From a phage: a stretch of DNA of 64,000 nt. The stretch lies in the sequence record PZ809289.1; one strand, given 5' to 3'. The notes under the pieces were generated by a model. That model made no database searches. It was not told where the DNA came from and worked only from the letters and a program-made list of their open reading frames with translations. Position numbers and translations under genes: made by a program. Below, in pieces: positions 2,344 through 46,391 of the stretch; positions within the stretch are counted from its first letter, which is position 1; each line of letters opens with the position of its first letter.

Positions 2344-2588
2344 TATTCGTCGTCCTCGTCATCATCCGCATCGTCAGATTCTTTTTTGTCTTTCTTATCT
2401 GCTTTATCGGATTTTTCGTCGTCTTCGTCATCTTCGTCAGCTTCTTCGCCTTCAATCATAACGGAGCGAGCAATTTCTGCTTTACGGGCTTCAATCAAAG
2501 CGGTTACTCGAGATTCGATAAGCGGGGCTGCTGCTTTACGAACTGCTACGAGGTCGTTTGATTTAATAGCTTCGATTAAATCTTCCAT
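2343..2588 (-). CDS. 67: Prohead core protein gp67
   Basis: 81 aa with poly-acidic C-terminal tail; position between 68 and 20 as in T4. Confidence 0.7.
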
Positions 2589-4162
2589 TAGAAATCCTCT
2601 TCTTCTTCATCTGGGTTTTGGAAACGAGCCTCTTTAGACTCTTCTTCAATTTGCTTAGCTTCTTGATTAATTTCTTCGTCGGTCATTTGGAGGAAATCTT
2701 TCATAGCCGTTTGATGTGAAATATACTTACCAATAAATGGTTCAGCCATCGTTAGCATATTGATTCTGCGTTCCATGATTTCAGCATCTTTCATTTCACT
2801 GAAATAGCTATCACGGTTAAACGTAACTTTAATATTATTTATTTCCTTTTCCCACTCATCTTCTGTAATAATCTTTTTAAGAATGAGGTTTGTTTTTAAC
2901 GGGTCTAGGAAAATTTCTTCAAATTTGTTTTGTAGTTGACGAATCCATTTAGAGAATTTTAATTCGTCACGAGTGATTGCTGTACCGGCATCAAACATAA
3001 CACCAGAATTAGACTCGCTAGGGATACGTGATTCAGGAACACGCAACGCACGGTAAAGTGCTGTGCGGAAATAAAGAACGTCATCCATATCACTCATACC
3101 AGTAGCACCTGGCATTGTATCAACTTCTGTTACCGCTTTACCATCACGACGTTGCAACCAATAGTCTTCAGTCATGGACATATTGTGTTGTTGGTTTTTA
3201 ATTTTACCTGTCGAAGCATCATACACCACACGGTTTTTCATCGTGTTCATGATATGTTGCATTTGTGCTGCAGCCTTACGTGAAGGCATATTACCTGTAT
3301 CGATATAAAACACACGACGGTCAGGAGCACGTGTAATACGGTAGATGACCATTGCGTCTTCCATCAATTTAAGCTGGTTTGCAGGCTTAATAGCACGTTG
3401 CAAATAGCCAATGATGTTTTTACCACAACAATCTAATAATCCAGAATGAGCATAAACCACTGCAGCACGAGGAATTTTAACTTTAGTCCCGGCTGAATAA
3501 ATGCGTCCATCAGCGCAATAACTTTCATGGCCTGTATCATAAACGAAAAACTCGCGATATCCGTCTACAACTTTAACGCCATCTTCCATACGTGTAACGA
3601 TTTCACGAATATATTGGACCTGGCGTGGGTCTAAGCGACGAAGCTCTTGTACGCCATCTTTCATTTTTTTAGGGTTTATAATTTTATGAAAGAAAATTCT
3701 TGAGTCTACATACCAGCGTTGGAAATGGTCAGTACCTTTACGTTGGAAATTTAAAAGGTTTAAAACTTCACTGAATTCGGCCAAGATTTTATCTTTAATT
3801 GCTTGACTAAATTCTGTCCCGTCTAAATTCAATGCAACTACTTCTTTATCATCCTCATAGACAATAGCGTCAGACACAATTTCCTGTACGGCGTTGTCGA
3901 CTTCATAGTTGTTCATTAAATTACGGTAGGTATCAATAAGTTCCCTGGTATTTTTAACTTCAGGCTCATTACTACCAAACATCTGTTGCATAAGAGCATT
4001 ATAAGGAATATTTTGCTCTTGTGTCTCAATTTCGCGAGCGCCATCATCAAGCTTAGGTGCGGTGACAGACTCTAAATTGTTATTAATTTGTTGTTTATAT
4101 TCTTTTTCGTCTTCATTAGCCCATGGCTTAAGAAAACTTAATATTGTATTAAAGTTTGCCAT
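2588..4162 (-). CDS. 20: Portal vertex protein gp20
   Basis: 524 aa, same length as T4 gp20; synteny. Confidence 0.9.
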
Positions 4163-28387: not shown

Positions 28388-28395
28388 TATAAATA
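28388..28395 (+). promoter_or_regulatory. Late promoter TATAAATA upstream of gene 4
   Basis: tataaata 26 bp upstream of ATG. Confidence 0.6.
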
Positions 28396-28402
28396 ATATT
28401 AA

Positions 28403-28410
28403 TATTTATA
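28403..28410 (-). promoter_or_regulatory. Late promoter TATAAATA upstream of gene 53
   Basis: Divergent pair with gene 4 promoter. Confidence 0.6.
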
Positions 28411-31821: not shown

Positions 31822-31832
31822 TTTAAAAAGTT

Positions 31833-31861
31833 GTTTACAAGGTCTATAGGCATGATACTAT
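31833..31861 (+). promoter_or_regulatory. Early promoter cassette (GTTTAC, 17 bp, TACTAT)
   Basis: IR AGGTCTATAG/CTATAGACCT; conserved TACTATAGACCTATCAA. Confidence 0.6.
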
Positions 31862-31898
31862 AGACCTATCAAAACAAACTAACCAAACGGAAATCAAA

Positions 31899-32123
31899 AT
31901 GAAAACTTATCAAGAATTTATCACCGAAGCTAAAAGACATGAAGATGAACTGCCAATTGTTACAAAAACCTTTGATGGCACACTGGCCGATTTTAAAAAA
32001 GTCCCTAGTGATAAGCTTGCTAAATTGACTGGCTCTATCAATGAAAAAGGTGGCAAGGTCACGTTTTCTGCTGGCGGCATAGCCAATCTTAAAAAACTTT
32101 TGAAAGCCGCTGGCGCTGAATAA
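31899..32123 (+). CDS. Internal-protein-like, capsid-targeting leader MKTYQEFITE
   Basis: N-terminal MKTYQEFITEA matches the T4 internal-protein capsid targeting sequence; early promoter upstream. Confidence 0.6.
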   Translation: MKTYQEFITEAKRHEDELPIVTKTFDGTLADFKKVPSDKLAKLTGSINEKGGKVTFSAGGIANLKKLLKAAGAE

Positions 32124-32124
32124 A

Positions 32125-32397
32125 ATGAAATCATACCAAGAATTTATCGCTGAATCTATTCTTAATGAGGAAGTAAAAATTAACAAATCTGTTAAGACTA
32201 TGATTGATGATATAAATCATCTCTATAACATCGATTTGACTAATCACGTAACTTTAGGCAATAAGCGAAACTTTTTTGTTTTTGATACTTCAGAACTCGA
32301 CCAGAATCAAATTAACAATATTGAACGTTTTGCTAATGAAAAAGGGTTGCGTCACGAAACAGCTGGTTATAAAAAGTATGCAATTTATCTAAAATAA
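32125..32397 (+). CDS. Internal-protein-like, leader MKSYQEFIAE
   Basis: CTS-like N-terminus. Confidence 0.55.
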   Translation: MKSYQEFIAESILNEEVKINKSVKTMIDDINHLYNIDLTNHVTLGNKRNFFVFDTSELDQNQINNIERFANEKGLRHETAGYKKYAIYLK

Positions 32398-32399
32398 TT

Positions 32400-32428
32400 G
32401 TTTACAAGGTCTATAGGTGTGATACTAT
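32400..32428 (+). promoter_or_regulatory. Early promoter cassette
   Basis: Same architecture as 31833. Confidence 0.6.
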
Positions 32429-32464
32429 AGACCTATCAAAACAAATGAGTGATTGGAGAATAAA

Positions 32465-33799: not shown

Positions 33800-33870
33800 G
33801 GCCCTGTAGCTGGACGGTCGAGCGAGCGACTCATAATCGCTGGATGGTGGTTCGATTCCACCCAGGGCCA
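33800..33870 (+). tRNA. tRNA with CAU anticodon (Met/Ile2-type)
   Basis: Hand-folded cloverleaf: acceptor GGCCCTG/CAGGGCC, anticodon stem AGCGA/TCGCT with loop CTCATAA, T-arm GGTGG-TTCGATT-CCACC. Confidence 0.65.
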
Positions 33871-33911: not shown

Positions 33912-34577
33912 ATGTTCCATTACACTTATAAAATAACAAACAAAATTAATAATAAAATCTATATAGGTGTCCATTCAACCGAAAATTTGAATGATGCATA
34001 TTTTGGTTCCGGTAAACTCTTGAAAAGGGCCCAGGCCAAATACGGTATAGAAAATTTCTCTAAAGAAATATTAGAGTTCTTTGACGATAAAATCTCTATG
34101 TTTGAGTCAGAAAAGAATATTGTGACTGAAGAGTTTTTAAAGCGCCCCGATGTTTATAATTTGAAATTAGGCGGTGAAGGTGGTTGGGACCATTTAAACA
34201 CCGAAGAATATTTAGATAAAAAGAAAGAAGCTTCCTTAAAAGGAGTTGCTGCTTTTAAAACCAGATTTGAGAACGACCCAGACCTTAAAGAAAAATATCG
34301 TAAAATGGGTTCAGAAAGGTTTAAACAACTTTGGGATAATCCTAAGTATAGAGAGAAATTTTCAAATACTAAATCTTTCTTGGGTAAGACCCATTCAGAT
34401 GAAACCAAAAATAAAATTAAAGAATCTCACGCCAGAAATAAACACCAACAAGGTGAAAATAATTCCGGATATGGAAAAATGTGGATTCATTCTTTAGAAG
34501 AAAAAGTTTCTAAACGTATTAACAAAACGGATATTATTCCTGAAGGTTGGAATAAAGGCCGTAAAATAAAATTTTGA
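33912..34577 (+). CDS. segB: GIY-YIG homing endonuclease, segB-like
   Basis: 221 aa; GIY-YIG motif (KIYIGVHS...YFGSG); between two tRNA genes as T4 segB. Confidence 0.7.
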   Translation: MFHYTYKITNKINNKIYIGVHSTENLNDAYFGSGKLLKRAQAKYGIENFSKEILEFFDDKISMFESEKNIVTEEFLKRPDVYNLKLGGEGGWDHLNTEEYLDKKKEASLKGVAAFKTRFENDPDLKEKYRKMGSERFKQLWDNPKYREKFSNTKSFLGKTHSDETKNKIKESHARNKHQQGENNSGYGKMWIHSLEEKVSKRINKTDIIPEGWNKGRKIKF

Positions 34578-34582
34578 ATTAC

Positions 34583-34657
34583 GTCCCGCTGGTGTAATGG
34601 ATAGCATACGATCCTTCTAAGTTTGCGGTCCTGGTTCGATCCCAGGGCGGGATACCA
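34583..34657 (+). tRNA. tRNA-Arg (anticodon UCU)
   Basis: Acceptor GTCCCGC/GCGGGAT + A + CCA, T-arm CCTGG-TTCGATC-CCAGG, anticodon loop CTTCTAA. Confidence 0.7.
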
Positions 34658-34659
34658 AA

Positions 34660-35000
34660 TGAAGACTATTATATAGTCAAGCCGTCGTATGAAGACTGAT
34701 TACCAGCATTCACCGGCGCAACAAACAAGAAACCGGGTCGCTACCGGTAAGTCGTCGGACTGATGTTCCCTGAGTAAGGACTGGCATTAACAAATCTTTA
34801 CGATCTGTTAACGTCCCCTTACATCACAGCAGAAACGGCGCACCGAATTATCGATTCGAGGAAATATCTTTGCCGTAAGCCGAGTAGCGTTTTTGACGGA
34901 ACGTTCGGATATGGTCGAGATATGGCCTTTTAAAAATATTGAGTGGCGTCAACTACTTAATAACCGGGTTCGAATCCCGGCGTTTCGTACAAACACTTGC
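34660..35000 (+). ncRNA. Possible tRNA-associated stable RNA region (T4 rnaC/rnaD-like)
   Basis: No ORF; T-arm-like CCGGGTTCGAATCCCGG at ~34966; by analogy with T4 species RNAs downstream of tRNA-Arg. Confidence 0.25.
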
Positions 35001-35039
35001 CTAGCAGGTGGAACCCCGACAAGGTTACCCTAGGTTAAA

Positions 35040-35067
35040 GGCCCTTCCGAAAGGTTGGGCCTTTTTT
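35040..35067 (+). terminator. Rho-independent terminator, repeat copy 1
   Basis: GGCCCTTCCGAAAGGTTGGGCC + T6. Confidence 0.6.
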
Positions 35068-35068
35068 G

Positions 35069-35076
35069 TATAAATA
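35069..35076 (+). promoter_or_regulatory. Late promoter TATAAATA upstream of 35104 membrane-protein gene
   Basis: tataaata immediately after terminator. Confidence 0.5.
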
Positions 35077-35103
35077 TGTAGTTAAACTAACCTAGGAAAT
35101 AAT

Positions 35104-35658
35104 ATGAAACTTTTAAAATATTTGAGTTGGGTACTGTTGGTTCCTCTAGATTTTATCTCTATGGTTCTGGCTGTTATCCTTGCACCATTTGTGGTTCCTT
35201 TCCACAATAAAAAGACCGGTAAATTGCCTTATGGCTTTGATTGGATGATGACATACGATAATCCAATTGACGGTGACAAAGGTCATATTAAACGTTGGGC
35301 TAAAATCAGGAAAATGCCAGGTGGTGTTTATCTCCAGAGAGTAGCCTGGTTATGGCGAAATAAAGCTTATAACTTTGCTTATCATAAACTTGGACGCGAT
35401 TGTAGTTCGGAATTCCATTATCGTGGTAATCCTGACGTAGAATCAGGTTCTCCTGATAAAGCTCATCATGGGTGGCTATGGATGTGGAATGACGACGCCT
35501 GGGGTGTATTTGCTTCAGTTCCTTATCTTAAGGTTGGTGGAATCACATTTTACCTTCGAGTGTACTGTGGCTGGAAGCTTAAAAGTCTTTTGTCTCGTAA
35601 AATCCCTAAGGCTATGTTAGCCTTCCACATAAACCCATTCCGGTTCTACAAGAACTGA
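35104..35658 (+). CDS. Membrane protein, late-promoter driven
   Basis: 184 aa, N-terminal TM segment, Trp/basic-rich; TATAAATA 27 bp upstream; flanked by identical terminator hairpins. Confidence 0.5.
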   Translation: MKLLKYLSWVLLVPLDFISMVLAVILAPFVVPFHNKKTGKLPYGFDWMMTYDNPIDGDKGHIKRWAKIRKMPGGVYLQRVAWLWRNKAYNFAYHKLGRDCSSEFHYRGNPDVESGSPDKAHHGWLWMWNDDAWGVFASVPYLKVGGITFYLRVYCGWKLKSLLSRKIPKAMLAFHINPFRFYKN

Positions 35659-35663
35659 TTCTA

Positions 35664-35692
35664 GGCCCTTCCGAAAGGTTGGGCCTTTTTTT
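35664..35692 (+). terminator. Rho-independent terminator, repeat copy 2
   Basis: Identical hairpin + T7. Confidence 0.6.
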
Positions 35693-35716
35693 GTTTCTAA
35701 AAGGTTTAAAAAAGAT

Positions 35717-35745
35717 GTTTACTCTTTCGTAGAACATGATACTAT
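35717..35745 (+). promoter_or_regulatory. Early promoter cassette
   Basis: GTTTAC, 17 bp, TACTATAGACCTATCAA. Confidence 0.55.
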
Positions 35746-35780
35746 AGACCTATCAAAACAACAGAGTGAAGGAGAGTAAA

Positions 35781-36044
35781 ATGGATAATTATGGTGAAGT
35801 GTTTAATTTCTTTATGAAATGCGTTCCTGAAGAATTTGGTGCTACTGTTAACGATATTAAAGTTATCGGCCCTGAACACCCGGTGTATGAAACCTATGCA
35901 GTAATGGGTAATGAAGATGGACAGTGGTATACAATTAAAGTTGTGATTAATATGTTCTCAGCTGAAGGTTACGCCAAATCGTCTACCAAAGTTTACCATG
36001 GTAATGATTTTGATGCAGAAAATTATTTCAATAATATGAAATAA
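35781..36044 (+). CDS. Hypothetical protein
   Basis: ATG 35781 after SD GGAGAG; early promoter upstream. Confidence 0.5.
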   Translation: MDNYGEVFNFFMKCVPEEFGATVNDIKVIGPEHPVYETYAVMGNEDGQWYTIKVVINMFSAEGYAKSSTKVYHGNDFDAENYFNNMK

Positions 36045-36047
36045 AAC

Positions 36048-36076
36048 GTTTACATGGGCTCATGATTAAGATATTA
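36048..36076 (+). promoter_or_regulatory. Early promoter-like cassette
   Basis: GTTTAC, 17 bp, ATATTA; IR TGGGCTCAT/ATGAGCCCA. Confidence 0.4.
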
Positions 36077-36102
36077 TGAGCCCATAATTTGAGGAGAACA
36101 TA

Positions 36103-43271: not shown

Positions 43272-43766
43272 ATGGATATTTTTGATATGTTACGCCTTGA
43301 TGAAGGCTGTAAATTAGACTTATATAAGGATACTGAGGGATACTATACTATTGGTATTGGCCAATTGATTACTAAGAATCCTTCTAAAGATGTTGCTCGG
43401 GCTGAACTTGATAAGCTTATGGGCCGGGTTTGTAACGGACGTATTACTATGGCTGAAGCCGAACAACTTTTTAACAGGTCGGTTGAAAATGCTCGTAGAG
43501 CTATTCTGCGTAATCCTAAATTGAAACCTGTTTATGATGTACTGGACGAAGTTCGTCGTTGTGCTTTAATTAACATGGTATTCCAAATGGGTGAAGCAGG
43601 TGTAGCTGGGTTCACTAACTCTTTACGTATGCTCCAACAGAAACGTTGGAATGATGCGGCAGTTAACCTGGCTCAATCCCGTTGGTATAAACAAACCCCT
43701 AATCGTGCTAAGCGCGTGATTTCTACATTTAAAACAGGTACTTGGAAAGCATATGAAAACTTATAA
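43272..43766 (+). CDS. e: Endolysin (T4 lysozyme E)
   Basis: 164 aa; [32 protein letters not shown]...[22 protein letters not shown] matches T4 lysozyme. Confidence 0.95.
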
Positions 43767-44151
43767 TGAATTTATCGCAGAGAATGTAATTCCTGCATCT
43801 AAAGAACTTTTGGCAATGTTCGAATCTGAAGAGTTCACTGAAGAACTGAATGAGAATCTGACCCAGGCCACTCCTCAGGTTATTCGCGTTCGTAATGCCC
43901 TTCAGACAGGCATGCAGGCTCGCGTCTCTAAGACTATGAAGCTGGCCTTCACCACTTCTAAAAATGAAGACTACGGTGATGGTATTGCAATGAACACTGG
44001 ACAGTATTATGTTGAGTGGAATGGCGAAACCGGTACTGCTAAGATTCGCCAAACCAGAGCAGCGGGTGGTAAAATGTTGGACATTAAACTGAACGTTAAA
44101 GAGAAAGACGTCGCGGCTTTGTTCAAGAATTGGATGAAGACCTATAAATAA
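43753..44151 (+). CDS. Internal-protein-like, leader [10 protein letters not shown]
   Basis: CTS-like N-terminus; adjacent to e where T4 carries ipIII/ipII. Confidence 0.6.
44143..44150 (+). promoter_or_regulatory. Late promoter TATAAATA upstream of ipIII-like gene
   Basis: tataaata adjacent to early promoter. Confidence 0.45.
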
Positions 44152-44180
44152 GTTTACATCTCCTAGAATTGTGATAGTAT
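44152..44180 (+). promoter_or_regulatory. Early promoter cassette
   Basis: GTTTAC, 17 bp, TAGTAT. Confidence 0.45.
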
Positions 44181-44233
44181 ATCTACAGTTACTTGAACAG
44201 ACCAATTAAAATATTTTCCTTTAAGGAACCCGT

Positions 44234-44830
44234 ATGAAAACGTATAAAGAATTTATCGCCGAAGCTTCTGTAGGAAAGGTCCAAGGCATTAATAAAGATG
44301 AGTGGACTTACAAAGGAAACGGCGTTGACAACCCAGGAAACGGTTTTGACGCTAAAACAGCTCCTATTGAACGGTACTTGGCTACAAAAGCTTCCGACTT
44401 TAAAGCTTTCGCCTGGGAAGGACTTCGCTGGCGTAACGACCTAAATATTGAAGCTGATGGACTTAAATTTGCCCATATCCAAGATGTTGTTGCTAGTAAC
44501 TTGGACGCAGCTTTTGTTAAAGCTGACGGTGACCTTCGTCGCTGGAATTTAAAACTGTTCTCTAAACAGAAAGGTCCTGTATTTGTACCTAAAGCAGGTA
44601 AATGGACTATTGATAATAAATTGGCTAAAGCAGTTAACTTCGCTGGTCTTGAATTTGCCAAGCATAAATCCGCATGGAAAGGTCTTGATGCAATGACTTT
44701 CCGTAAAGAATTTGCCGATGTTATGGCTAAAGGCGGCTTTAAGGCAGAAATAGATACCTCTAAAGGTACGTTTAAAGACGCTAATATTCAGTACGCTTAC
44801 GCCGTTGCTAATGCAGCCCGTGGTAATTAA
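44234..44830 (+). CDS. Internal-protein-like, leader MKTYKEFIAE (ipIII-sized)
   Basis: 198 aa, CTS-like N-terminus, basic; late and early promoter motifs upstream. Confidence 0.6.
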   Translation: MKTYKEFIAEASVGKVQGINKDEWTYKGNGVDNPGNGFDAKTAPIERYLATKASDFKAFAWEGLRWRNDLNIEADGLKFAHIQDVVASNLDAAFVKADGDLRRWNLKLFSKQKGPVFVPKAGKWTIDNKLAKAVNFAGLEFAKHKSAWKGLDAMTFRKEFADVMAKGGFKAEIDTSKGTFKDANIQYAYAVANAARGN

Positions 44831-44854
44831 TAAAGCCGATACTTGATAAAAGTT

Positions 44855-44905
44855 GTTTACATCTCCTGTAGTCATGATACTATAGACCTATCAACTACAG
44901 GAGAT
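44855..44905 (+). promoter_or_regulatory. Early promoter cassette with flanking IR, upstream of denV
   Basis: Arms ATCTCCTGTAG/CTACAGGAGAT; second arm contains SD. Confidence 0.6.
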
Positions 44906-44910
44906 TAAAA

Positions 44911-45318
44911 ATGACTCGTATCAACCTTACCTTAGTATCTGAATTGGCTGACCAACACTTAATGGCTGAATATCGTGAATTACCACGTGTTTTCGGTGCA
45001 GTTCGTGAACGTATTGCCAAAGGGCAAGGCTTCTCTGATATCCCTAAAGACTTCCGCCTTGGTTCAGGGCACGTCAAGTTCTTTTATGACAAAATTGGTT
45101 TTTTGTTCTTGCGACAAAATGCAATAATTGAGGAACTTCTGAAGCGTGGTTACCAGATTCAAAATACCCATGTAGACGTAGCGGATATTCCATTACGGCT
45201 TATGAACGATTTCACTCCAACCGAAGCTGATATAGCTTTAAGCCAAGCTCGTCTGGATGAAAAAATTGCACAGCGTCCTACCTGGTACAAACATTATGGC
45301 AAGGCTATTTACGCTTAA
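44911..45318 (+). CDS. denV: Endonuclease V (pyrimidine dimer glycosylase) DenV
   Basis: 135 aa; [32 protein letters not shown]...[26 protein letters not shown] near-identical to T4 DenV. Confidence 0.95.
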
Positions 45319-45361
45319 TTAAATCCGTGATAGAATACTTCTATCAACTTAAGGAATAACA

Positions 45362-45661
45362 ATGAAAACTTATCAAGAATTTATCACAGAAGCCAAAGCT
45401 CCTAAAGCATTTCAAATTGGAGTTCAAGGCAATTTAGACCAAGAATATGTTGATGCTATTGTAGCAAGCCTCGGTAAACAGGGCGTACAAGTCGATTTTG
45501 TTGATTTTACCAAAGGTAATACTTTTAATATTGTTACATCTAAAGGTTCTTTAGCTAAAGTTAAAAAGGCCTTTGGCGTAGCACAAGCATATGAAATCGA
45601 CCACTCCGAATTAGAAAATAAAGGTCGCCAGAACACAATTAGAGGTTCTGGTTCTTTCTAA
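45362..45661 (+). CDS. Internal-protein-like, leader MKTYQEFITE
   Basis: CTS-like N-terminus. Confidence 0.55.
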   Translation: MKTYQEFITEAKAPKAFQIGVQGNLDQEYVDAIVASLGKQGVQVDFVDFTKGNTFNIVTSKGSLAKVKKAFGVAQAYEIDHSELENKGRQNTIRGSGSF

Positions 45662-45765
45662 TAAAGGCAAGCCGGCCCTCTCCTCATGAACGTCTAGTCC
45701 TCTGGGTGATGAACCCAAGGATGAATTATGTGCCAAGGATTAGTCCATAACTTAAAGAGTCAAAA

Positions 45766-46125
45766 ATGAAAACATATCAGCAATTTATTACTGAATCTAC
45801 CCAACGTATTAACGAAGCTATGTCGCCTGAACAGTTGGCTAAAGCTAAAGAAGGCCTGAACCCATCTGAAGTTTTTAAAGTTACAGGTAAAGACTTTGCT
45901 TCTATGGCCACTAACCAAAGCCTGGCTAAAGAACTTAAATCTAAATCTAACTTCATTCATGCTACATGGAATGGTGATTCTCTTACTTCAATAAGTGTGT
46001 ACAATAAAAAAGGTCTCCTTAAGAGTTCTTATGGCGCGGATGCCATCCGTGTTTCTAAATCAGATTGGCATAAAAACACTACTAAAGCAGAAAAACCTCA
46101 TAACCCGGCACTAGACCATCTTTAA
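45766..46125 (+). CDS. Internal-protein-like, leader MKTYQQFITE
   Basis: CTS-like N-terminus. Confidence 0.55.
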   Translation: MKTYQQFITESTQRINEAMSPEQLAKAKEGLNPSEVFKVTGKDFASMATNQSLAKELKSKSNFIHATWNGDSLTSISVYNKKGLLKSSYGADAIRVSKSDWHKNTTKAEKPHNPALDHL

Positions 46126-46133
46126 GGCTTAAT

Positions 46134-46391
46134 ATGAAAACTTACCAAGAATTTATTACAGAATCCACTTTAGTTTCTAAACGTTGGAATATGATTGTAA
46201 ACGTTAAACCTTCCGGCACTGAAGTTTCTATGGCCGACCCTAATGATGACGAACTTGAGCACGCTTTTAGCTCTAAAGAAACTGACGAGAAAGTGGTTAA
46301 GCAACTGGTTGCTGATGCAGATCAACTTCGTAAAGTAGCAGATGTTGTTAAGCTGTTTACTAAGAAAGGTTTTAAACACGAAGAACGTTAA
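46134..46391 (+). CDS. Internal-protein-like, leader MKTYQEFITE
   Basis: CTS-like N-terminus. Confidence 0.55.
   Translation: MKTYQEFITESTLVSKRWNMIVNVKPSGTEVSMADPNDDELEHAFSSKETDEKVVKQLVADADQLRKVADVVKLFTKKGFKHEER

Follow-up and report, generated by a model that had tools for sequence, protein, structure and literature searches.

Is a lone gene that stands directly behind the stable-RNA genes of a T4-type phage a fixed resident of its locus, or is it cargo that comes and goes? The question arises from a 64,000-nucleotide stretch of phage DNA (sequence record PZ809289.1; the whole stretch is called the window here), in which two identical hairpin repeats enclose a putative late promoter and one gene whose product belongs to the Pfam family DUF7338. 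The original prediction, an earlier reading of this DNA, had described a self-contained module that is gained and lost by recombination between the repeats. The window DNA is that of a Dhakavirus (a JS98-like T4-type phage), with phage LHE83 as its closest match (96.6% identity across 1.9 kb), and its gene order is that of the ipI-tRNA-e region of T4. The feature is, with good confidence, a 653-bp mobile cassette (35039-35691) that consists of a terminator hairpin, a T4-type late promoter, the DUF7338 gene, and the same hairpin again. Its parts, in order, are as follows.

35039-35067, + strand: repeat copy 1, hairpin 35040-35061 plus T6; closes the tRNA-rnaD-rnaC unit as a terminator-type element and marks the left boundary of the cassette.
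35069-35076, + strand: late promoter motif TATAAATA, directly 3' of the first T-run and 27 nt before the ATG.
35094-35099, + strand: ribosome-binding site AGGAAA, as read from the sequence.
35104-35658, + strand: cargo gene for the 184-amino-acid DUF7338 protein, assigned by Pfam PF24027, phrog_2143, and an AlphaFold2 model.
35663-35691, + strand: repeat copy 2, hairpin 35664-35685 plus T7 (to 35692); putative cassette terminator and right boundary.

The hairpin GGCCCTTCCGAAAGGTTGGGCC (22 nt) was present in exactly two copies in the window, at 35040-35061 and 35664-35685, and no further match was found there with up to 3 mismatches allowed (0 expected, from 100 shuffles). The identical run extends to 29 nt (an A, the hairpin, and T6), spanning 35039-35067 and 35663-35691, and the second copy has one T more. 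The basic claim of an identical repeat placed twice around a late motif and one gene was thereby borne out, with the run set at 29 nt and the open reading frame (ORF) at 184 amino acids. Both copies folded (-16 to -18 kcal/mol; z about -3.2) into a G+C stem of 5 to 6 bp, a 2x2 U.U internal loop, and a C-G stem of 2 bp closed by a GAAA loop, with 6 to 7 U after the hairpin, which is the predicted anatomy of an intrinsic terminator; a simple terminator scanner missed both because of the internal loop. The cassette starts 50 nt 3' of a homologue of T4 rnaC, after tRNA-Arg and an rnaD homologue, and hence adjoins the tRNA/stable-RNA locus as had been noted. At the same site in T4, about 50 nt after rnaC and behind the same trailer, there is a related hairpin (GCCCCGACCGAAAGGTTGGGGC plus T5) that runs on into the e.8 early promoter with no gene between. 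Copy 1 is therefore taken to be the resident terminator of the tRNA/stable-RNA unit.

The comparison with related genomes that had been proposed along with the original prediction found two Dhakavirus members, Salmonella phage ABTNLS3 and Escherichia phage FB, to be precisely without the unit. Both retained one hairpin, and the cassette was gone: the left flank of copy 1, a single hairpin, and the right flank of copy 2 followed each other directly, exactly one repeat and the intervening DNA (624 bp) were missing, and the breakpoints fell at the repeat. The early promoter that follows copy 2 in the window (35709-35762) lay directly 3' of the single hairpin in these empty-site genomes. Other relatives carried the unit whole or rearranged. 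JS10 had the full unit with two hairpins. In QL01, WG01, E33, and phage 005, a 154-amino-acid gene with an internal protein (IP)-type leader was inserted between the late promoter and DUF7338, and this IP-like gene had the same hairpin, promoter, and leader as well as its own terminator. The order was reversed in JS98 and IME281, where DUF7338 came first and was followed by the hairpin, TATAAATA, and the IP-like gene, and two further stretches (L053 and L054) had other cargo genes behind the same hairpin and late promoter. As presence is the rule in Dhakavirus, its empty genomes are best read as direct-repeat deletions; the empty states of ABTNLS3 and FB are more likely deletions than ancestral, and the locus would on that account show loss rather than gain.

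The same unit was found at a second locus in another genus. In the Mosigvirus-type phage NHEP29, the gene (76% amino acid identity) lies 3' of rI with a copy of GCCCCTTCCGAAAGGTTGGGGC on either side; TATAAATA comes after the first copy and an early promoter after the second. AV109, which is classified as Mosigvirus, carries the same protein cluster. A blastn comparison of the window with the NHEP29 region returned a single block (35039-35691 against 2440-3091, 73% identity), with homology spanning outer hairpin edge to outer hairpin edge and nothing alignable beyond. The exact empty rI site (rI, one hairpin, early promoter) was present in Av-05, and the rI junction was contiguous in 132 phage records and split in a minority (AV109, ECO111 5-P, LF82 phages, and TH58). 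The two genera have different stems (GGCCC/GGGCC versus GCCCC/GGGGC); the change, from G-C to C-G, is compensatory and argues that the structure of the hairpin is under selection. The repeat, the precise presence or absence of the unit, the second locus, and the boundaries of homology are all direct observations, and of these the rI-locus data are the strongest evidence for insertion at a resident terminator hairpin, beyond deletion. The empty sites and the rI-locus unit together support the module of the original prediction, insertion being best seen in Mosigvirus. As a separate observation, the Av-05 record (KM190144 / NC_025830; 120,938 bp) is classified as Avunavirus (Vequintavirinae) and holds both a Mosigvirus-like rI locus 100% identical to an IMG/VR stretch (L020) and a 61%-identical DUF7338 gene elsewhere; it may be a mixed assembly.

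A route for such movement is offered by the promoter-early stem-loop (PeSL) cassettes of T4-type phages, in which ORFs flanked by PeSLs are lost or gained from one relative to another and give rise to mini-circles (Arbiol et al. 2010, PMC2839356; Comeau et al. 2014, PMC4122927). Mini-circles from ORF excision were shown experimentally for RB49 and phi1; in the resulting model, short terminator/promoter elements act as homology patches for very active T4-type recombination, the reverse reaction inserts at the same or another element, and built-in terminators keep a module from disturbing its neighbors (PMC2839356, PMC4122927). If the PeSL experiments are a guide, the phage recombination system would use the 29-nt hairpin copies as portable homology. 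An exchange between the two copies would take the cassette out, presumably as a small circle, and leave one hairpin, and recombination with a resident hairpin of the same family would bring it in, here or at another terminator. Judging from the motifs, the upstream hairpin would end transcription of the tRNA operon, TATAAATA would direct gp55-dependent late transcription of the cargo gene, and the downstream hairpin would shield the e.8 early promoter. Because it brings its own hairpins and motif-predicted late promoter, the unit would be transcriptionally autonomous wherever it landed. In the window, the cassette is located within the PeSL that ends the tRNA-Arg/rnaD/rnaC unit and starts e.8. 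What we infer is in which direction and by what mechanism the unit moves, when it is expressed, and what its cargo does.

A history of deletion only would dispense with insertion through the hairpins: DUF7338 would be an old resident gene of the tRNA-e region, and the hairpins would be the terminators of two adjacent units. Nearly all Dhakavirus records do carry the gene, just two being cleanly empty, its position near tRNA genes in Gelderlandvirus and Karamvirus as well suggests old synteny, and the hairpin type is a common terminator design. We nonetheless consider this history quite improbable, given that the unit occurs at rI in a minority of Mosigvirus with 132 records empty there and homology ending at the hairpin edges, and that the cassette order is permuted in close relatives, with different cargo behind the same hairpin and late promoter. 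A mobile cassette also accounts better for the locus than does co-conversion by a homing endonuclease, whereby the SegB-like gene at 33912-34577 would cut genomes lacking it and repair would copy the flank together with the cassette. That gene does lie only about 460 bp upstream of the cassette, and homing endonucleases are named as a second source of plasticity in these regions (Comeau et al., PMC4122927), but co-conversion leaves both the breakpoints exactly at the hairpins and the rI-locus copy unexplained. The distribution of the two elements makes it extremely improbable, segB and the cassette being independent of each other: the two occur together in the window, E33 has only the cassette, T4 and T6 have only segB, and ABTNLS3 lacks both. 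Spread driven by SegB was rejected on the same independence. Also rejected were a transposon or MITE (miniature inverted-repeat transposable element)-like element, as neither terminal inverted repeats nor a transposase were present, and a joint transfer of tRNA-Arg and the gene between T4-like phages and Felix O1 phages, whose tRNA-Arg genes are unrelated.

Several findings weigh against a cassette that moves strictly by its hairpins. In IME341, the gene was cut to its first 17 nt fused to its last approximately 63 nt, directly before hairpin copy 2, and this loss by internal deletion made no use of the hairpins. In VR20, the gene (92% amino acid identity) stands behind a GCCCC-type hairpin and TATAAATA while the downstream hairpin is unrelated, and VR20 and its empty-site counterpart (L026) share only GGGCTTTTTTATA (13 nt) at the junction; an identical repeat is thus not obligatory for the cassette. 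RB43, Felix O1, PG7, and Gelderlandvirus have the gene with other hairpins or none. The hairpin core, an 18-mer (CCCTTCCGAAAGGTTGGG) with the 2x2 U.U internal loop and the GAAA loop, was found in 63 IMG/VR stretches from about 20 unrelated phage contexts, nearly always with a T-run next, which makes it a widespread terminator design; with the core recurring in that many unrelated lineages, hairpin sharing alone would be no proof of common descent. The cassette is, furthermore, near-universal in Dhakavirus, the protein being carried at an identity of at least 90% by about 54 phage records. The mini-circle step is borrowed by analogy from the PeSLs, and late expression and termination are inferred from motifs only.

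By itself, the TATAAATA octamer is weak evidence for a late promoter, as 15 copies were counted in the window against 7 expected. It did not vary, on the other hand, among the window, JS10, JS98, VR20, and NHEP29, although the leader up to the ATG had diverged, and where it lies, together with its retention in diverged copies of the unit, makes it credible as a late promoter. No -35/-10 pair was found after copy 1, where the late motif comes directly. Elsewhere, the signals before the gene were of other kinds: (i) in the Karamvirus PG7, an unrelated terminator hairpin followed by the late-like CATAAATA; (ii) in Gelderlandvirus, the late-like AATAAATA with no upstream hairpin identified; and (iii) in RB43 and Slopekvirus-like phages, a UUCG hairpin without a late motif. 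Apart from the cassette, the palindrome TATAAATAATATTAATATTTATA at 28388-28410 constitutes a late-promoter motif on both strands, just 5' of a + strand ORF with a strong ribosome-binding site.

What, then, is the cargo? The protein matched Pfam DUF7338 (PF24027) over its full length (E 3.8e-63; 212.9 bits against a cut-off of 27; residues 1-183 on profile positions 1-179 of 180) and also fell into phrog_2143. Its 10 Trp and 27 Lys plus Arg residues (isoelectric point 9.9) agree with the Trp- and basic-rich product described before, as does a hydrophobic N-terminal segment of 27 residues (approximately 7-33; GRAVY, the grand average of hydropathy, 2.2). Averaged over 27 homologues, the charge flanking this segment was +2.2 on the N-terminal versus +0.4 on the C-terminal side (positive-inside). 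For the membrane-anchored protein of the original prediction, which had called for a topology prediction, flank charges and hydrophobicity predict an N-in/C-out orientation. The cargo is accordingly predicted to be a type II signal-anchor protein with a cytoplasmic N terminus and a basic, Trp-rich alpha/beta domain of about 150 amino acids, the domain being placed in the periplasm on the strength of the flank charges. The AlphaFold2 model (predicted local distance difference test [pLDDT] score, 95.6) comprised a 32-residue N-terminal helix, a small helical subdomain, and a five-stranded antiparallel sheet. One feature of the model weighs against this topology: the N-terminal helix was modeled at pLDDT 89-98, and in view of such very high confidence it may pack on the domain instead of acting as a plain anchor.

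Homologues were all stand-alone proteins of about 170 to 200 amino acids, and a HMMER search over 1.8 billion representatives returned 213 stand-alone proteins of about 180 amino acids (50% identity clusters) with no informative fusions. They occurred in several Tevenvirinae genera, RB43-like and Klebsiella phages, Felix O1-like phages, Vequintavirinae, jumbo phages, Pseudomonas phages, and a Chitinivorax prophage. When 27 members were aligned, polar and aromatic residues proved invariant or nearly so in four motifs (TYDNPIDGD.GH, AWLWRNKAYNF, R.Y.GWK.K, and HINPFR), the invariant polar residues being T50, D52, R85, N86, Y89, R152, and K158. NCBIfam and PADLOC searches with DUF7338 gave no match, a sequence profile search of the PDB gave chance matches only, and a Foldseek search of the PDB with the model gave E values of at least 0.2 throughout, with no solved structural relative. 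The weak top fold matches were hot-dog proteins, a fold with a sheet around a long helix, at nonsignificant TM-scores of 0.11 to 0.19. A BFVD search returned unnamed family members only, plus one automatic “Envelope protein” label. DUF7338 was mentioned in no paper in a literature search, and its peptide motifs were absent from the supplements of two accessory-gene screens.

Genomic context gave further hints of a role. The gene is dispensable: ABTNLS3 and FB are without it, IME341 has a remnant only, and T4 has no copy at the locus. It stands beside or inside tRNA clusters in Dhakavirus, in Gelderlandvirus (128 nt after tRNA-Arg in L083), in PG7 (between tRNA-Phe and tRNA-Met), and in Felix O1 (18 nt after tRNA-Arg and 8 nt before tRNA-Gln); these tRNA genes are unrelated and were therefore not co-transferred with DUF7338. 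In a prophage on a Chitinivorax sp. contig (L072), DUF7338 is the last phage gene, right after the tail fiber and chaperone genes. Two metagenomic phage contigs (L075 and L081) have it after a glycine-rich fiber-like gene, and in L081 it lies just 5' of a complete lysis cassette (M15 endolysin, a holin candidate with 2 transmembrane domains [TMDs], i-spanin, and o-spanin). Prophages often keep surface-modifying or exclusion genes after the tail fiber and chaperone genes. The T4 gene t is located after the tail fiber and chaperone genes as well, as DUF7338 is in L072.

An accessory role at the envelope (exclusion, receptor masking, or lysis control) is tentatively favored, since polar residues are conserved across distant hosts, which argues against a typical fast-evolving holin. 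With low confidence, the cargo might bind or modify a conserved envelope component late in infection and so act in exclusion, receptor masking, or lysis control. The functions suggested in the original prediction (lysis timing, superinfection exclusion, or envelope modification) would be compatible with the predicted topology. Rather unlikely, in our estimate, is a lysis protein proper, i.e., a class III-type holin or a holin regulator resembling T4 T that provides a second lysis-timing input. Phage Mushroom, which is Felix O1-like, has a homologue that is annotated as a holin, its genome paper describing a class III holin with 1 TMD, N-in and C-out (PMC4392139), and the predicted topology of the cargo is the same. 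Position speaks for lysis in three settings: the Mosigvirus copy sits right after rI, the L081 gene just upstream of the endolysin/holin/spanin cassette, and the prophage copy after the tail fiber and chaperone genes, as T4 t does. The Mushroom label, however, was given on bioinformatic grounds only, L081 already has its 2-TMD holin candidate, and T4-type phages carry t. Nor was there any similarity to T4 T (hhalign probability 0.08%), a match to a Pfam holin family, or a T chain among the PDB fold matches, and so many invariant polar residues across very distant phages are unusual for holins and would better fit ligand binding or catalysis.

Less probable again, and very unlikely overall, is a late structural or assembly factor, such as a helper of tail fiber or virion assembly whose hydrophobic helix is buried in the fold. 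Such a factor would suit the late promoter, the proximity to tail fiber genes in three unrelated contigs, the pLDDT of 89-98 of the N-terminal helix, and top fold matches, if weak ones, in which a sheet surrounds a long helix. Those matches were not significant, though; the composition and flank charges of the N-terminal segment are of the signal-anchor type, the gene is dispensable in the phages named above, and the protein is not among the Felix O1 virion proteins listed in the abstract of a proteomics study (PMC3185647). Returning to an envelope-acting role, a broader and more doubtful proposal is that DUF7338 is a new, widespread family of late, periplasm-facing envelope effectors (an enzyme or binder with a fold not found in solved structures) that in T4-type phages is carried by an undescribed class of late-promoter stem-loop cassettes hopping between terminator hairpins. 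On this proposal, placement in tRNA clusters in Dhakavirus, Gelderlandvirus, Karamvirus, and Felix O1 might be a functional or regulatory link and not mere tolerance of insertion.

The surroundings of the cassette contain the following features.

33800-33870: tRNA-Met.
33912-34577: SegB-like GIY-YIG/NUMOD3 homing endonuclease gene, between tRNA-Met and tRNA-Arg.
34583-34657, + strand: tRNA-Arg (TCT), called by ARAGORN and Rfam, 75/75 identical to T4 tRNA-Arg; part of the upstream tRNA/stable-RNA unit.
34728-34844, + strand: homologue of T4 rnaD (species 2 stable RNA), with 104 identities over 118 columns in a local alignment to T4 rnaD.
34851-34989, + strand: homologue of T4 rnaC (species 1 stable RNA), 137/139 identical to it.
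34990-35038, + strand: trailer from rnaC to the terminator, kept from T4 to Dhakavirus and able, by folding, to form its own stem-loop.
35709-35762, + strand: PeSL-type early promoter, with -35 GTTTAC (35716-35721), a 17-nt spacer, and -10 TACTAT (35739-35744), preceded by an AT-rich stretch.
35781-36044, + strand: homologue of e.8 (87 amino acids; phrog_2678; T4 annotation and sequence), the first gene 3' of the cassette.

Between the IP genes and tRNA-Met, the window has ORFs resembling trna.3 and trna.2. The SegB-like gene is missing from E33 and ABTNLS3, where tRNA-Met and tRNA-Arg abut. Some 67 nt between tRNA-Arg and the rnaD homologue (34661-34727) have no T4 counterpart and are missing from JS10; the end of this segment (CACCGGCGCA) resembles the 3' end of rnaD, and the segment may be a leftover or an additional small RNA. 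Most of the rnaC homologue is absent from JS10 as well. An Rfam search (E <= 1) over 31 to 38 kb returned two tRNAs only, with no family for the hairpins or the rnaC and rnaD homologues. The trailer (about 50 nt; ACACTTGCCTAGCAGGTGGAACCCCGACAAGGTT...) also precedes the hairpin in T4, and in VR20 a protein-coding gene takes the place of rnaC in front of it, so that it moves with the terminator and not with rnaC.

The early promoter at 35709-35762 lies outside the mobile unit, drives the e.8 homologue, and makes a PeSL together with the hairpin. It is the third copy of a 54-nt PeSL-type repeat family (the others at 31825-31878 and 32392-32445) that combines an early promoter (GTTTAC...TACTAT) with an internal stem-loop (GGTCTATAG/CTATAGACC); the copies at 31825 and 32392 flank internal-protein genes, and the third (35709) is degenerate in its left arm. 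A canonical PeSL at 36049-36095 contains a 13-bp perfect stem-loop (GGGCTCATGAT...ATTATGAGCCC; -20.1 kcal/mol, z -5.9) between the -35 (TTTACA) and -10 (TATTAT) of the promoter of a 132-amino-acid gene, and T4 is arranged alike between e.8 and e.7. A pattern search found six window ORFs that start with the IP capsid-targeting leader MKTY.EF or MKSYQEF. These form two IP loci (31899-32397 and 43753-46391); T4 likewise has two, with fewer genes.

Taken as a whole, the cassette provides a base-pair-resolution example of the exchange of a single accessory gene in T4-type phages, in which a 29-nt terminator hairpin defines the unit of exchange and the same unit occupies two loci in two genera. Phages that by nature either have or lack the cassette on an isogenic background (ABTNLS3 or FB versus other Dhakavirus) make it possible to test directly a widespread protein family whose members bear an unsupported holin label in some phage genomes. 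Late membrane proteins that can be dispensed with in this way may underlie traits of interest to phage therapy, such as lysis timing, exclusion, and host range. In its architecture, the cassette is an ordinary member of an already known kind.

Among known systems, single-pass envelope proteins of T4 resemble the cargo in its predicted outline only. The class III holin T, RI, and Sp have what is predicted for it, an N-in/C-out single span, a large periplasmic domain, and late transcription, and T also shares the position after tail fiber genes that DUF7338 has in some phages, but there is no detectable sequence or structural similarity. Morons, reportedly known from lambdoid and P2-like prophages, are likewise single accessory genes with their own promoter and terminator between unrelated genes, and the Chitinivorax prophage has DUF7338 at the classic moron position, after the tail fiber and chaperone genes at the prophage end. 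Unlike morons, the cassette lies between identical repeats, so that homologous recombination explains how it is gained and lost, and its promoter is of the phage late type and not a host-type one active in lysogens.

A closer parallel is found at the IP loci of T-even phages, where late-promoter blocks are said to flank interchangeable IP genes. The genome region is the same, conserved transcription and translation signals surround interchangeable late genes in both cases, and the 154-amino-acid IP-like gene of E33 and QL01 has a hairpin, TATAAATA, and leader identical to those of DUF7338 in the window. DUF7338 itself, however, starts with MKLLKYLSWV and, in a pattern search, had no MKTYQEFIAE-like leader; lacking a capsid-targeting leader and looking like a membrane protein, it is not considered an internal protein.

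The closest likeness is to the PeSL cassettes. In both, stem-loop terminators joined to promoters are repeated in hyperplastic regions and flank single accessory ORFs, the ends of indels between close relatives fall in the elements (here, ABTNLS3 and FB at one locus, and Av-05 and the 132 records at rI), and the ORF is transcriptionally insulated, as predicted for the cassette from its hairpins. Hairpin copy 2, the AT-rich stretch, and GTTTAC-17-TACTAT reproduce the T4/PST form, in which the stem-loop is just 5' of the promoter. The setting is hyperplastic too, with further elements at 31825, 32392, 35709, and 36049-36095 and with IP genes and PHROGs of unknown function as neighbors. Two differences stand out: only the 29-nt stem-loop with its T-run is repeated, the promoter being single, and the upstream copy is joined to the late TATAAATA and not to a sigma-70-like early promoter. 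The published accounts treat early (PeSL) and middle (PmSL) versions only, with no mention of late promoters (PMC2839356, PMC4122927), so the PeSL model would here be extended by late-transcribed cargo if the motif is rightly read as a late promoter. The phenomenon itself is already published as PeSL-mediated modular shuffling, from which this cassette differs by the late promoter on its upstream side.

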